DNA of 64,000 nucleotides from a virus (Duplodnaviria; Caudoviricetes): positions 32,001 to 96,000 of the IMG/VR virus record IMGVR_UViG_3300000439_000009; one strand, given 5' to 3'. A model generated the notes under the pieces. The model was not told the DNA's origin and did not search any database. It worked only from the letters and a program-made list of their open reading frames with translations. The translations under genes were made by a program, and so were the position numbers. This document shows positions 1,712 to 11,941 of the stretch, one piece after another. Positions within the stretch are counted from its first letter, which is position 1; every line of letters starts with the position of its first letter.

Positions 1712-1961
1712 TTAAATAATCCTTGAGATATCTTTCGCCTGCCTTAAGATTTGTTTTCAAATTAAGTTCACGTCCATACTTAAACATAAGCTTTGATACG
1801 TACATTAAATTATTTAATTTGTTTTGCTTTCTTGCAATAGTCTTTGCTCTACGCTTATGACCTCTTGCTTGTGCTTTTGCGCCTAAACCCTTATGCATTA
1901 TTATCCTCATATCCAAATAGTACTCCGCTATTAACAAAGTAGAACTTTTCTCCAACTGCAT
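1704..1961 (-). CDS. Basic hypothetical protein (start likely MHKGLG ~1898)
   Basis: ORF, K/R-rich. Confidence 0.5.
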   Translation of the reverse strand: MQLEKSSTLLIAEYYLDMRIIMHKGLGAKAQARGHKRRAKTIARKQNKLNNLMYVSKLMFKYGRELNLKTNLKAGERYLKDYLNA

Positions 1962-4078: not shown

Positions 4079-4379
4079 GAATTTTCTTTAGAGTATCCCA
4101 AGTTTCTTTAGTCTTATGTGCATTATTTTGTTTATCTACACGACCAAGATCCATAAAGATCCCGCCACGTACGCCAAATTCTTTCATGGAAACACCCTCT
4201 TTGTAACATTGCTTAATTACTGGACAACTTAAACATACTTCATCAGCAGTTTGTGCCGTAATCTTATCATTTTCGTAATCATCATAAAACCAATTAATGC
4301 TCATGCCTTTGCATGCAGCAAGATGATACCACTTTAGGTCTTCTTCATCAATACCTAATTCTTTAAGAATGCTTGACAT
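4059..4379 (-). CDS. whiB: WhiB-family Fe-S transcription factor
   Basis: W...AAC, C..CPV..QC, FGVRGG (variant of GVWGG). Confidence 0.9.
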   Translation of the reverse strand: MSSILKELGIDEEDLKWYHLAACKGMSINWFYDDYENDKITAQTADEVCLSCPVIKQCYKEGVSMKEFGVRGGIFMDLGRVDKQNNAHKTKETWDTLKKIHGKNIL

Positions 4380-8260: not shown

Positions 8261-8488
8261 TTAATTGCTAGATTGAGAGGGCTTGTTGTTGATATATTCT
8301 CTCTCATCAATAATTTCATATGCTTGATTGTTTAACTTATCTTGATTCTTAACGTAATGATGTCCACAAAACATCAACTCCCCGCTAATTAATCTAACCA
8401 TTACAAAAGCTTGTGACCCACATGCATCACATCTATCAATTACTTTTAATACACGATCTGCTTTTTCTTGTGTCATAGTCATACTCAT
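8261..8488 (-). CDS. Small Zn-finger protein of actinobacterial type (DUF7455-like)
   Basis: DRCDACGSQA...LMFCGHH. Confidence 0.75.
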   Translation of the reverse strand: MSMTMTQEKADRVLKVIDRCDACGSQAFVMVRLISGELMFCGHHYVKNQDKLNNQAYEIIDEREYINNKPSQSSN

Positions 8489-8524
8489 AGTATATCCTTT
8501 TATGTTAGTAGTTACAAGTTTTAG

Positions 8525-8597
8525 TGTCCCCAGCAGGTTTCGATCCTGCGACCCGTTGCTTAAAAGGCAACTGCTCTACCAACTGAGCTATAGGGAC
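8525..8597 (-). tRNA. tRNA-Lys(UUU)
   Basis: Cloverleaf; anticodon arm GTTGC-CTTTTAA-GCAAC. Confidence 0.9.
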
Positions 8598-8598
8598 A

Positions 8599-8674
8599 TG
8601 GTACCCCAAGTTGGATTCGAACCAACGCTGTATGGATTTTAAGTCCACTATCTCTACCACTGGATTACTGGGGC
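8599..8674 (-). tRNA. tRNA-Leu(UAA), short variable arm
   Basis: GTGGA-CTTAAAA-TCCAT, TTCGAAT loop, encoded CCA. Confidence 0.88.
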
Positions 8675-8678
8675 TAAG

Positions 8679-8751
8679 CCCCCTCGGCACGATTCGAACG
8701 TGCGACGCAGGCCTTAGAAGAGCCTCGCTCTATCCTCTGAGCTACGAAGGG
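8679..8751 (-). tRNA. tRNA-Arg(UCU)
   Basis: AGGCT-CTTCTAA-GGCCT, TTCGAAT loop. Confidence 0.9.
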
Positions 8752-8758
8752 AAACCTA

Positions 8759-9283
8759 TTAAAGTGTTGCGCCACCAATTGGTCGTGCACACGCTGTCTT
8801 TTCACCAGTTTGCAATGCATCTAGAATACGCAATGTTTCTTCTGGATTACGTCCTGTGTCAAGATTATTAATTGTTACATGCTGAATAACATCATTATCA
8901 TCAACAATAAATGTCGCACGAAGTGCTACTCCGCCAGATGTTAAAATGTTTAACTGCTTTGCCAAGCCAAGTTCAAGATTCTGATCTGCAAACATAGTTG
9001 ATCTAATATTAGTTAATTGTGGGTCAGCTTGCTTCCATGCAATCTTAACATATTCATTATCAACTGATCCAATTAAAAGCTTTGCATTTCTTAAGCCAAA
9101 CTGTTCATGCAAAGAATCATAGCCAACAATTTCTGTTGGGCAAACAAATGTGAAGTCTTTTGGATAAAAAACAATAACTTTCCATTTGCGTCCAAATGTA
9201 TTGTTAGTTATTTCAAAAAAAGAATTATCTGCTCTGACTCCAGTAATCTTAAAGTCAGGCAACTTATTTCCTACTGTGTACAT
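8759..9283 (-). CDS. ahpC: AhpC-type 2-Cys peroxiredoxin
   Basis: FYPKDFTFVCPTE, LRATFIVD, GRNPEE.LR, resolving Cys; true start MYTVG because the longer ORF overlaps tRNA-Asp. Confidence 0.95.
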   Translation of the reverse strand: MYTVGNKLPDFKITGVRADNSFFEITNNTFGRKWKVIVFYPKDFTFVCPTEIVGYDSLHEQFGLRNAKLLIGSVDNEYVKIAWKQADPQLTNIRSTMFADQNLELGLAKQLNILTSGGVALRATFIVDDNDVIQHVTINNLDTGRNPEETLRILDALQTGEKTACARPIGGATL

Positions 9284-9315
9284 ACTACTCCTTATATAAG
9301 AAGGCTTGCGCCTTG

Positions 9316-9389
9316 CGATCTCAACGGGACTTGAACCCGCAACCTCCACCGTGACAGGGTGGCGATCTAACCAATTGATCTATGAGATC
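9316..9389 (-). tRNA. tRNA-Asp(GUC)
   Basis: CCACC-CTGTCAC-GGTGG, TTCAAGT loop. Confidence 0.9.
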
Positions 9390-9393
9390 CTAG

Positions 9394-9467
9394 TGGAACA
9401 GGTCAGACTTGAACTGACGATTACCGAATTATGAGTTCGGGGCTTTGACCAACTAAGCTACTGTTCC
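9394..9467 (-). tRNA. tRNA with CAU anticodon (elongator Met or Ile2)
   Basis: CCGAA-CTCATAA-TTCGG; G1-C72 is paired, so not initiator. Confidence 0.85.
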
Positions 9468-9468
9468 T

Positions 9469-9545
9469 TGGTAGAATGTTTGCGAATTGAACGCAACTCT
9501 AGGGAGGATATAAGCCACCATCTGACCACCAGCCAGCCACATTCC
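9469..9545 (-). tRNA. Atypical tRNA-Ile(UAU)
   Basis: Acceptor GGAATGT/ACATTCT, ACCA end, loop CTTATAT, T-arm TTGCG-TTCAATT-CGCAA; U-U mismatch in anticodon stem, G8. Confidence 0.65.
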
Positions 9546-9546
9546 G

Positions 9547-9619
9547 CTGGGGAAACAGGGCTCGAACCTGTGACCTAGGCATTAACAGTGCCCCGCTCTG
9601 CCGACTGAGCTATTCCCCA
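9547..9619 (-). tRNA. tRNA-Asn(GUU)
   Basis: GGGCA-CTGTTAA-TGCCT, TTCGAGC loop. Confidence 0.9.
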
Positions 9620-9623
9620 AAAA

Positions 9624-10211
9624 TTAAAATGGAACTTTTTCCATTATTGATTCGTCTATTTCACAAACAATGTTTATTACTACTGAAGATCTAAAATCAG
9701 ATTCTTTTGGATATTCCCAATTGTGAAAAATATCTCCATCAAAAAATAAAGCATACCCAGCTTTTGGTTCAAAAGATTTGAACAATGTTAAACTGTTTGG
9801 ATCAACTTCTTCTCCAGTATATCTTTTATCGTAAAGGTTTGTATTTCCTTCAGAATCATTAACATAATACACGAAAGTGTAATGTTTTTCAACTCTTCTT
9901 AAATCTACGTGAGGATCCATAGGTCTTTGTTCTTTAGATCTAAATGTAAGATTTCCTCTTTGCCTAAGTATTTTTTTAATTTTTACATTATTTTTTTCTG
10001 CAAATTTATTAATTAAAAAGGTAGCAAAATTTAAATCAAGAAAATCAACAACCATTATTCCATTATCAGAAAAATTATTGCTAGTTAAACCAACAACATT
10101 ATCTTTAGCTGCGCCTATTGATTCTATGAATCTATATTTTTGAGAAAATAAAAAATTTCTTGCATATATAACTTCTTCTTCTGTTAAAAAGTTATTTACA
10201 TAAAGATACAT
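9624..10211 (-). CDS. 2OG-Fe(II) oxygenase
   Basis: PHVD (HxD), YYVNDSEGNT, FFDGDIFH, R.S.VIN. Confidence 0.85.
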   Translation of the reverse strand: MYLYVNNFLTEEEVIYARNFLFSQKYRFIESIGAAKDNVVGLTSNNFSDNGIMVVDFLDLNFATFLINKFAEKNNVKIKKILRQRGNLTFRSKEQRPMDPHVDLRRVEKHYTFVYYVNDSEGNTNLYDKRYTGEEVDPNSLTLFKSFEPKAGYALFFDGDIFHNWEYPKESDFRSSVVINIVCEIDESIMEKVPF

Positions 10212-10230
10212 TTTGTTCCTTTAATTAAAG

Positions 10231-10348
10231 GTACGGTAAGCAAATTTCCTAACTGCATGAATGACCCAGATCCACCACGAATCCCATACCAGGTCTCATG
10301 TATGTAATATGTAACTATTCCATCCTAAGAAAGTGTTGCTTACCGTAC
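10231..10348 (-). ncRNA. Putative 118-nt structured RNA or 5' leader
   Basis: 13-bp perfect terminal stem GTACGGTAAGCAA/TTGCTTACCGTAC plus inner stems; begins at the predicted TSS. Confidence 0.6.
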
Positions 10349-10355
10349 TATGTAT

Positions 10356-10385
10356 ATTATACTAGGTGGTTATTTATTATGTCAA
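10356..10385 (-). promoter_or_regulatory. Sigma70/SigA promoter for the structured RNA and tRNA cluster
   Basis: TTGACA-18 nt-TATAAT. Confidence 0.75.
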
Positions 10386-10802
10386 CTATTTGATTTTGAT
10401 TTGCTTTGGTTTTTTTGCTTCTGGTACTTCTCTTTCAAGCATAATACAAAGCATTCCATTTTCAACTTCTGCACTCTTGACTTCGATATATTCAGCTAAT
10501 GAAAATGTGCGGGTAAATTTACGTGTTGCAATCCCCTTGTGAATAAACTTATCTTCTTTATCTGTTTCAATATCTCCTTTTACAGTAAGAGTTTGATCTT
10601 CTACAGATACGGATAGGTCATCTTTTGAGAATCCCGCCACCGCTATATCAATACAGAAGTTATCATCATCAATTTTAATGATGTTAAATGGTGGGTATGA
10701 TTGATTAATTGCGTTTTGATGAACTTGATTCATCTGTGCTATTTGGCGATTGTAGCCAATAAAAAAAGGATCATTAAAAAGATCCCATAGGTTGTTTGTC
10801 AT
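10386..10802 (-). CDS. Small heat-shock protein Hsp20 (IbpA-like)
   Basis: YPPFNI, IAVAGFSKDDL, HKGIATRKFTRTF, NGML.I.L. Confidence 0.95.
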   Translation of the reverse strand: MTNNLWDLFNDPFFIGYNRQIAQMNQVHQNAINQSYPPFNIIKIDDDNFCIDIAVAGFSKDDLSVSVEDQTLTVKGDIETDKEDKFIHKGIATRKFTRTFSLAEYIEVKSAEVENGMLCIMLEREVPEAKKPKQIKIK

Positions 10803-10856
10803 AATTTGCTCCTTTTAAGCGAGTTATTTAAATTCAGGCCCCCATAGGCAACCTGT
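10803..10856 (-). promoter_or_regulatory. ROSE-like thermometer in the hsp20 5' UTR
   Basis: Upstream hairpin plus CUCGCUU pairing with SD AAGGAG with a bulged G. Confidence 0.5.
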
Positions 10857-10888
10857 ATATACATTATATCAAACTGTTAGAGTTATTG

Positions 10889-11941
10889 TCAAATAGTTGT
10901 GTTATTAGAAGATCTGTTCCCGTACCCCACAGATGGCTTGCCATCATTTTCATATGTCGCTCTTGACGGGAAATAGTATCTTGCATCTTGATCCTGTGAA
11001 TTAAAATCAGGACCCATTTGACCTTTATTAGATGGAACAAATACACCAGACCAAATTGATTCGCCCTTTTCCATCTTATTTTCTCTTTCAACAATTGCAC
11101 GAGACCATGCAAATCCTGCATCTCCGCCCCATGCGTACCACATAACTTTACCATGTGAAGGCTTATCCCACTCTTTACCCTGCTTGTCAACTTCATGGCG
11201 TGAGAAGAATGAATACATACGCTTTACAGTATCAAGACTTAAAGACTCTCCATTAACAATTTGACGGGCTCTGCCCCAACCTACGGCTGTACCAGCTCCA
11301 GTTGCCTTGCCATCTTCTTTCCATTTAATTGCTTTGTGTGCTGCAGCCTTCATACCTGCATTTGGCTTATAGCCAGAATCTGATTTCTTTACTTCTTTAG
11401 GAATGCAATCTGGAACAGTTTTACCATTCTTTTCTTTTGTACCCGCATACTCATAACCATCCCAGCAAGGACCTTGACCCTTGGTCATGCAACTTAAACA
11501 TTTTTCTTCATCAGAAATATAATGATGATCATTTCCTAAATCATCACATCCGCATGTCATACATTTATTCACTACGTTATTCTCCTTATATTCCTCTGGA
11601 GTTTTAGTTGTCCTAACTTCATCGCTGAGTAGGTCTATTTTGGGGTTATCTAGGCCTTTGAGAGCCTCTTCTGCTTCTGCCCTAGTCAAGTAGCAGCCTA
11701 TTGATTGACCCGTTCCAGACTTCATTATAGCATATCCATGCTGACAATCTGGAGTATTAAATTCAATTGACCAGCCGTCTCCACCTGTAAATATCATTTT
11801 CTTTACATCTGGCACGTTTGTATATAAAGCACCTAATTGTGCCTGGGCCTGGGCTTTAGACGGATGTGTTCCAACAACCTTACCAGTAGCAGTAACTACT
11901 ACTTGATACTTGTTACCTTCACGTCTGATATTATATGGCAT
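10889..11941 (-). CDS. Multi-module protein, candidate head-internal polyprotein
   Basis: Two related N-terminal modules, CMTCGC, CWDGY..VPDC module, RMYSFFSRH..WGGDAG domain, IWSGVF motif; leaderless promoter. Confidence 0.75.
   Translation of the reverse strand: MPYNIRREGNKYQVVVTATGKVVGTHPSKAQAQAQLGALYTNVPDVKKMIFTGGDGWSIEFNTPDCQHGYAIMKSGTGQSIGCYLTRAEAEEALKGLDNPKIDLLSDEVRTTKTPEEYKENNVVNKCMTCGCDDLGNDHHYISDEEKCLSCMTKGQGPCWDGYEYAGTKEKNGKTVPDCIPKEVKKSDSGYKPNAGMKAAAHKAIKWKEDGKATGAGTAVGWGRARQIVNGESLSLDTVKRMYSFFSRHEVDKQGKEWDKPSHGKVMWYAWGGDAGFAWSRAIVERENKMEKGESIWSGVFVPSNKGQMGPDFNSQDQDARYYFPSRATYENDGKPSVGYGNRSSNNTTI

Follow-up and report, generated by a model that had tools for sequence, protein, structure and literature searches.

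A family of phage small RNAs in tRNA arrays that may pair with helix 69 of the host 23S rRNA

We identified a 118-base stretch at the head of a phage tRNA array that, on comparative sequence evidence, is a real folded small RNA gene and a member of a family. We consider it probable that its product is a stable RNA, freed by tRNA-processing enzymes, which base-pairs with the host 23S rRNA at helix 69; any particular downstream effect of such pairing is proposed with much less confidence. The gene was found in a lake phage of actinobacteria, represented by a 107-kb IMG/VR virus record (IMGVR_UViG_3300000439_000009) that is 99% complete, the phage and its host both being uncultured. The window referred to below is the whole 64,000-nt stretch of this record that was analysed. 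Phages of several host phyla may repeatedly have evolved small RNAs that pair with helix 69, a wider proposal that we advance tentatively and with slightly less than even confidence; the member in the window would then be a pseudo-tRNA unit tuned to actinobacteria.

Phages are known to take over translation by means of proteins, including modifying enzymes, nucleases and factors, and by means of extra tRNAs. A full-text search of the literature returned no description of a phage RNA directed against helix 69 or of such a structured RNA in tRNA arrays, nor of any natural RNA, bacterial or phage, whose pairing partner is a functional centre of rRNA. If the pairing is real, the RNA would stand as the first natural case of an antisense RNA directed at a functional centre of bacterial rRNA, and as an effector RNA of a new class, by which large subunits are disabled, marked or dismantled. 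An RNA gripping helix 69 would be a new mode of ribosome control. Should this reading hold, it would also provide a function for the long-puzzling non-tRNA RNAs of phage tRNA clusters and a sequence-based host predictor, in which the motif tracks the helix 69 of the host phylum, and it would mean that nature already exploits a site aimed at by antisense antibacterials. What is new here is the actinobacterial tuning, the statistics of the tRNA slots, the retrieval of members independently of the antisense motif, and the rule that the complement is never perfect.

Genomic context and promoter of the RNA gene

The 118-nt RNA gene, assigned to the family by a covariance model match, occupies positions 10231..10348(-) of the window and is single-copy in its own 107-kb phage genome. 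A -35 hexamer TTGACA (10380..10385(-)) and a -10 hexamer TATAAT (10356..10361(-)), 18 nt apart, give a 12/12 match, and the closing stem of the RNA starts 7-8 nt past TATAAT, a promoter-to-RNA distance of about 7 nt. Transcription presumably starts at about 10348-10350, on the first base of the closing stem, in agreement with the original prediction of a TTGACA-18-TATAAT promoter with a start near 10349. Only two perfect promoters occur within 8300-11000, namely that of the RNA and one that drives the upstream Hsp20 gene (10386-10802). The -35 hexamer is conserved in the related contigs L012/L057, L014/L058 and L056, and a TATAAT- or TACAAT-like hexamer is found again 6-8 nt ahead of the stem in promoter-headed subfamilies. 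The Hsp20 promoter (window 10863-10892(-)) is likewise a perfect TTGACA-18-TATAAT, with TG ahead of its -10 box. In several subfamilies, among them the short stand-alone type represented by L061, the RNA likewise comes after Hsp20.

The RNA was also said to head an oxygenase-tRNA cluster, and the gene order bears this out. Directly downstream is a spacer (10212..10230(-)) with a CCUUUAAUUAAAGG hairpin overlapping the AAGGA ribosome-binding site of a 195-aa 2OG-Fe(II) oxygenase-like ORF (9624..10211(-); PF13640, E 4e-4, which is under the curated cut-off). The same presumed transcript continues with tRNA-Asn, Ile(UAU), Met and Asp (9315..9619(-)), predicted by ARAGORN and Rfam, an AhpC-like ORF (8759-9349) that splits the two tRNA groups, and tRNA-Arg, Leu and Lys (8524..8751(-)), which form the second half of the array. 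The oxygenase ORF is absent at the corresponding spot in L012/L057, in which the RNA is 100% identical, and in L014, L056 and L059. In relatives found via Hsp20 (L012 and L014 among them), CUUUUU(U) alone separates the RNA from tRNA-Asn. Because the relatives have a U-rich spacer and tRNA-Asn at this position, the oxygenase appears to be a cassette that was inserted into the spacer in this phage only.

A WhiB-family protein is encoded at window 4158-4331(-) (PF02467, 38.7 bits, above the cut-off). In a set of 14 control genomes, the WhiB family was matched in Corynebacterium only, and the phage WhiB, an actinobacterial hallmark, points to an actinobacterial host.

An RNA family outside the known classes

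The fold of the window RNA is closed by helix P1, in which the 5' strand (RNA nt 1-13, GUACGGUAAGCAA; 10336..10348(-)) pairs throughout with the 3' strand (RNA nt 106-118, UUGCUUACCGUAC, then CCUUU; 10231..10243(-)), forming the perfect 13-bp stem that had been described. Enclosed by P1 are an antisense block, CUUAGGAUGGAAUAGUUAC (RNA nt 20-38; 10311..10329(-)), which is the complement of actinobacterial 23S rRNA, and a scaffold core (RNA nt 39-105; 10244..10310(-)) made up of an AU-rich linker and two hairpin regions that correspond to hairpins P3 and P4 of the family and are diverged here. The minimum free energy of a 138-nt stretch around the RNA is -40.8 kcal/mol (z = -3.8), and 0/200 shuffles were as good. 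The inner stems of the original prediction (UUUCUUAG/UUAGGAAA, CAUGA/UCAUG and GACCUGG/CUGGGUC) are present in the minimum free energy structure of the window RNA but are not conserved as written, the family supporting two other short hairpins. In the single-sequence ensemble of the window RNA, CUUAGG is largely paired with UUAGGAAA, so access to the motif may require some unfolding.

Contigs retrieved through their Hsp20 genes carry the RNA together with the same promoter, namely L012/L057 (100% identity), L014/L058 (94%) and L056, L059 and L062/L063 (about 70%); L061 has a shorter version. The five closest contigs that share the oxygenase are without the RNA. Across the relatives, the closing stem has been wholly replaced yet is still paired (GUACGGUAAGCAA, GUACGGUAGACA, GUACAGCAGACA and GUCCCCAUACAGG), and the block CUUAGGAUG..AUAGUUAC is invariant across those retrieved via Hsp20. 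Scanning IMG/VR with this block gave more than 119 loci, and a closing stem of at least 10 bp stands at the expected distance in about 100/128 block matches. The block scan and a second scan through an unrelated 3' block together provided 78 elements, and the family thus comprises at least 78 distinct sequences in uncultured phage contigs, with lengths of 69-136 nt (median 113). No member was found by blastn among 50,697 GenBank/INPHARED phage records, which were queried with the element of the window, with three further subfamilies and with a 41-nt probe for the motif.

As most members were retrieved by a pattern containing the motif, conservation of the motif in that set is by construction. 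The motif-independent retrieval used the unrelated 3' block GAGAUAGGGCAG..UGGAAU and returned 33 distinct matches, 24 of which are true members. CUUAG, AUGG and UAUAGUUAC are intact in 24/24 of these members while P1 varies, and the only freely varying parts of the motif are the linker and the base opposite C1924 (G, A, U or C). A covariance model, R1, was built from 24 relatives that had been fetched without the window sequence or the antisense motif, the window itself being excluded. R1 matches window 10232-10347(-) over the full model length with 49.5 bits (E 7e-9), a score to which the 12-bp closing helix, CUUAG..AUGG..AUAGUUAC and P3/P4 contribute jointly.

Collection of homologues and inspection of their covariation, a check suggested along with the original prediction, gave 78 distinct sequences in which P1 carries compensatory changes at 12/12 pairs. 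The RNAalifold consensus of 38 long-form sequences consists of P1 only, again with compensatory changes at 12/12 pairs, and assigns the conserved block no conserved intramolecular partner. In the R1 alignment of 69 members, P1 is 98.9% paired with both-side changes at 12/12 pairs, and the entire structure is 96% paired, versus 33-42% once the 3' partners have been shifted by 1-3 columns. P3 (CCCG/CGGG around a GUAAGAGUU loop) and P4 (GGCA..UGCU around CG-UCAUU-CG) are 88-95% paired with some compensatory changes in this alignment, which is itself fitted to the model, and that these two hairpins are real in the family is only probable.

The RNA had been described as an unrecognised structured non-coding RNA with its own promoter, neither a tRNA nor SRP RNA, and this description stands. 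Neither ARAGORN nor the Rfam tRNA model, both of which detect the seven tRNAs, reports the RNA, which has no D, anticodon or T arm and whose sole tRNA-like feature is the 12-13-bp terminal helix. Searches against Rfam 15, at the gathering score across the window and at E<=10 across 10100-10500, matched only the tRNAs and no known family to the RNA; tRNAs only were also found at 10 diverse family loci and at 10 loci of the second RNA type described below.

The suggestion that the RNA is a polymerase decoy resembling 6S or Ms1 RNA finds no support in these comparisons. 6S and Ms1 are likewise small abundant non-coding RNAs with paired ends and an internal unpaired region, but they measure about 180-300 nt against 118 nt. 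6S RNA is unmatched in Rfam at E<=10 in 10100-10500, and the Rfam model of the actinobacterial Ms1 RNA (about 300 nt) is unmatched at any threshold. The window RNA folds into a closing stem and a multi-branched core, where a decoy would be expected to form a rod containing an open-promoter-like bubble. The conserved part of the molecule is the large asymmetric bubble that had been noted, and it is complementary to 23S rRNA.

Several other candidates were tried and rejected. A bacterial Y RNA-like molecule (YrlA) is unmatched in Rfam at E<=10 and the sequence is without a GGUUCGAAUCC-type T arm. A snoRNA-like guide (C/D or H/ACA) is unmatched in Rfam, and the alignments conserve neither a RUGAUGA/CUGA pair nor an ACA tail. 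A mini-ORF (AUG..UAG within the motif) is put out of frame by a linker that varies in length between 1 and 5 nt, and CUUAGGA has no flanking complementary strands that would make it an anticodon loop.

Complementarity to helix 69 of 23S rRNA

The invariant CUUAG..AUGG..AUAGUUAC complements 23S rRNA positions 1910-1929, which comprise the loop of helix 69, its 3' strand and the next five bases (CUAAG). AUAGUUAC is the reverse complement of E. coli rrlH 1910-1917 and is the only 8-mer antisense match of the element to 23S rRNA, and CUUAGGA complements E. coli positions 1923-1929, colinear with the AUAGUUAC match. In the window RNA, nt 20-29 are complementary to 1920-1929 and nt 31-38 to 1910-1917, with A1918 and A1919 facing a single A. 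The best antisense alignment of the RNA to the 3.1-kb Streptomyces 23S rRNA is at 1910-1929 with a score of 28, compared with 18.9 +/- 2.2 (max 25) in 200 shuffles. With a conserved, mostly unpaired stretch that is complementary to a defined target, the RNA resembles the class of antisense RNAs in the way it would work, a likeness that is not one of homology.

The complement matches the version of helix 69 that is found in actinobacteria. Their helix 69 reads GGUGG-UAACUAUAA-CCAUC, followed by CUAAGG, and that of E. coli reads GGCCG...CGGUC. As the actinobacterial strand has CCAUC where E. coli has GGUC, the phage GAUGG is the complement of the host-phylum version. A search of 185,579 species genomes with the phage motif gave more than 120 matches, and nearly all of those listed were in Actinomycetota, on the antisense strand of their own 23S genes. 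One match, L316:7747-7769 in a MAG labelled Proteobacteria, was the only non-actinobacterial one among the first 120 listed; as it is 23 nt long, it is not rDNA itself and may be a prophage copy or a binning error.

A possible extension, with CCAUU..GUGCWG opposite 1961-1973 and GGAAU opposite 1938-1942, was seen by eye but is not claimed. The two segments (window RNA nt 85-104) lie in P2 and P4, and their order is permuted across P1. When 61 elements without their motif were aligned locally with the full 23S rRNA, the scores were at the level of shuffles (z about 0). The duplex energy of the whole RNA with a 300-nt rRNA segment, -62.8 kcal/mol against -62.5 kcal/mol for shuffles, was uninformative, and other exact rRNA-complementary stretches in the 107-kb genome were at chance level only.

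Other scaffolds with the same complementarity

A control pattern with the E. coli-type middle (..ACC..) gave 116 matches, nearly all of them without a closing stem, as chance predicts. Among these control matches we found an unrelated family of small RNAs, here called type B, in which GG-CUUAGGACC-(3-4 nt)-AUAGUUAC at the start leads into a small hairpin and then into an intrinsic terminator. Its seed is the general-bacterial version of the complement to 23S rRNA 1910-1929, and the loop of its terminator, UCGCUAC, complements the seven bases 1931-1937 beside the first target. A dedicated scan with 24 specified bases recovered 14 phage contig loci with covarying terminator stems, including L438:8606-8659(-), L448:2186-2238(-), L487:2253-2307(-), L502:11619-11674(-), L506:766-828(-), L509:8804-8864(-) and L533-L538.

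Type B shares with the window RNA the outer blocks (CUUAGG.. and AUAGUUAC), a variable linker opposite 1918-1920 and a phage origin. It differs in its unrelated scaffold, in its general-bacterial GACC middle and in the extra loop to 1931-1937, and it is unmatched by R1 as well as by Rfam (10 loci). The sharing of one rRNA segment by different scaffolds suggests that the same segment is targeted, each time in the version of the presumed host phylum.

The perfect general-bacterial 20-mer, CUUAGGACCGUUAUAGUUAC, was observed on further scaffolds. In L452 (around 1882-1901(-)), it lies in a hairpin loop right behind a tRNA on a 144-kb contig. At L428:1902-1921(+), which groups with L436/L473/L474, the 20-mer stands just past a stop codon and is followed by a self-masking GUCCUAG and a terminator, and at L513:1489-1508(+) it is found ahead of a GC-rich terminator.

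Placement among tRNAs and alternative explanations

The family occupies slots that are otherwise typical of tRNAs. A same-strand tRNA abuts 45/61 distinct elements, the upstream tRNA typically ending 0-2 nt before P1 and the next tRNA following 3-11 nt after it. Opposite-strand tRNAs near the 61 elements number only three, at two loci, and none of them abuts. P1 measures 12 bp in 48/78 elements and 11-13 bp in 71/78, its terminal pair is G-C in 66/78, and the first base after it is C in 63/78. The window RNA shows the same placement, heading a seven-tRNA array, and its 100% identical copy in L012/L057 abuts tRNA-Asn. The stacked acceptor and T stems of a tRNA also add up to 12 bp. From the 12-bp P1 and the tRNA-like spacing, we infer that the RNA would be freed like the tRNAs, by RNase P and 3' trimming. 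A short form of 79-84 nt (L061:3429-3510 and about 15 relatives, with L143, L156, L183, L207 and L218 among them) has no tRNA neighbour; it lies by itself, flanked by Hsp20 and a small HNH-like ORF. Its own -10 box places the predicted transcription start on the first base of P1, as is also the case where the RNA heads an array. As the short form occurs away from tRNAs, the RNA could also function outside a tRNA array.

The tRNA slots, together with an acceptor-plus-T-like helix of 12 bp that usually begins with G-C and is followed by C or CC, are also what would be expected of a tRNA-like decoy or protein-binding RNA, for example a bait for a defence nuclease or a sponge for a processing enzyme, in which case the complementarity to helix 69 would be coincidental or a by-product. 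The tRNA cluster of T4, which keeps two stable RNAs of unknown function, would fit this explanation. We nevertheless regard it as unlikely, since the RNA lacks the D, anticodon and T arms, and since chance fails to explain both a 19/20 match in the host-phylum version and the reappearance of the complement on scaffolds that are unrelated and carry a second complementary block next to it.

A guide function, in place of a blocking one, is quite unlikely, and would be drawn from the irregularity of the complement. The perfect 20-mer occurs in 0/78 elements: opposite 1918-1921, each of them lacks a base, has one too many or carries a mismatch. Position 1924 also faces a mismatch in about a fifth of the 78, and in some an additional base bulges out behind CUUAG. 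Since a perfect 20-mer is never seen in the family, simple maximal antisense is insufficient as an explanation. As a guide, the RNA would form two helices (1910-1917 and 1920-1929) that leave A1918-C1921 unpaired for a host or phage enzyme to modify or cut, and the variable 3-4-nt linker of type B lies at the same place, while the conserved loops of the scaffold could hold a protein. Against this, some other phage RNAs do carry the perfect 20-mer, C/D or H/ACA boxes are absent with Rfam unmatched, and no RNA-modifying or nuclease gene consistently adjoins the elements. Clustering of the ORFs within 4 kb of the 78 elements gave Hsp20, DUF5872, DUF7455, ferritin-like and HNH-like groups as candidate partner proteins, none of them RNA-related. 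Under the preferred reading of direct pairing with helix 69, the duplex would be hinged at the junction between the loop of helix 69 and its 3' strand, with a helix of 8-10 bp on either side, and this hinge may reflect geometry, avoidance of RNase III, or a guide-like exposure of bases.

A regulatory leader had been another suggestion of the original prediction, and as the main role of the RNA it is improbable. Such a cis-acting 5' structure would stabilise, process or attenuate the oxygenase-tRNA transcript. The window RNA does form the 5' end of its transcript, the stem with the U-run (CUUUUU(U) in the relatives) resembles a terminator, and the small hairpin masks the ribosome-binding site of the oxygenase. 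However, the oxygenase is absent in near-identical relatives, in which the RNA abuts tRNA-Asn, and most members lie between two tRNAs or past the last one and not at a transcript start, while others (the L061 type) stand alone with their own promoter; a leader would also leave the invariant single-stranded block unexplained. A DNA-level element, either a site of attachment or recombination that has sequence in common with host rDNA or a miniature mobile element with inverted repeats, could account for the 13-bp terminal inverted repeats, the host rDNA identity over 10 + 8 bases and the oxygenase cassette inserted right beside the RNA, but is very improbable given that the inverted repeats vary by compensatory substitutions that preserve pairing rather than sequence, that there is one copy per genome, that the rDNA identity is always interrupted and that the orientation is always that of the tRNAs.

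Comparison with known RNAs

The closest parallels in placement are the species 1 and 2 RNAs of T4 (rnaC and rnaD). Like the window RNA, they are small stable RNAs (119-139 nt) of unknown function encoded among the tRNAs of a phage, in the same orientation as these and immediately adjoining one of them, and they are presumably released by the tRNA-processing machinery. They differ in that R1 is unmatched at either of them at E<=10 (cmsearch of the T4 tRNA region), in that their best antisense matches to E. coli 23S rRNA are at chance level, and in that rnaC has a tRNA-like T arm, which the window RNA is without.

In the way it would work, the window RNA is closer to CopA/CopT of plasmid R1 and RNA I/RNA II of ColE1, which are trans-acting antisense RNAs whose pairing starts at an exposed loop. 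Here too, the scaffold presents an unpaired stretch that is complementary to a hairpin loop and the adjacent strand, and entry through the loop followed by invasion is likely. In contrast to these systems, the target would be rRNA and not an mRNA or a primer, and the RNA would be made as a unit of a tRNA array, with no need of Hfq-type features or a terminator.

Proposed mode of action

We propose that a host sigma-70-type polymerase would start at the first base of the 12-13-bp closing helix, and that the RNase P cut of the downstream tRNA and 3' trimming would release the RNA as a separate molecule of about 118 nt. Its unpartnered stretch of about 19 nt would be held out by the closing helix together with two small hairpins, and with this stretch the RNA would enter via the exposed loop of helix 69 and then displace the 5' strand of its stem. 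In the mature 50S subunit the 3' strand of helix 69 is base-paired, and the RNA would have to invade this helix or else meet a particle that is still immature. The site is partly paired and, in the 70S ribosome, buried at the interface, for which reason we propose as targets free 50S subunits and 50S particles that are nascent or late in assembly.

The central bridge between the two subunits is made by helix 69, which also touches tRNAs, release factors and the recycling factor. A large subunit held by the RNA could therefore neither complete its maturation nor associate with a 30S subunit, and RNases would keep access to the RNA of its interface. Possible benefits to the phage include the shut-off of new host ribosomes and the channelling of 23S rRNA into decay and nucleotide salvage, or others. 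A phage with its own tRNAs needs working ribosomes, which counts against an attack on ribosomes.

The inferred pairing is made plausible by two lines of published work. As summarised in PMC10777018, translation is blocked and E. coli stops growing when a 13-mer PNA invades the helix 69 hairpin (Kulik et al., 2017, cited therein). The anti-helix-69 PNA oligomers share their target hairpin with the window RNA and indicate that the site is druggable by antisense, but they are man-made 13-mers against the E. coli sequence, whereas the window RNA is natural, 118 nt long and actinobacteria-tuned, and reaches 1925-1929. Moreover, the substrates of rRNA decay are free subunits with exposed interfaces, the first step being an RNase E cut after 1942 (PMC4931109). 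This cut position lies 13 nt beyond the target of the RNA.
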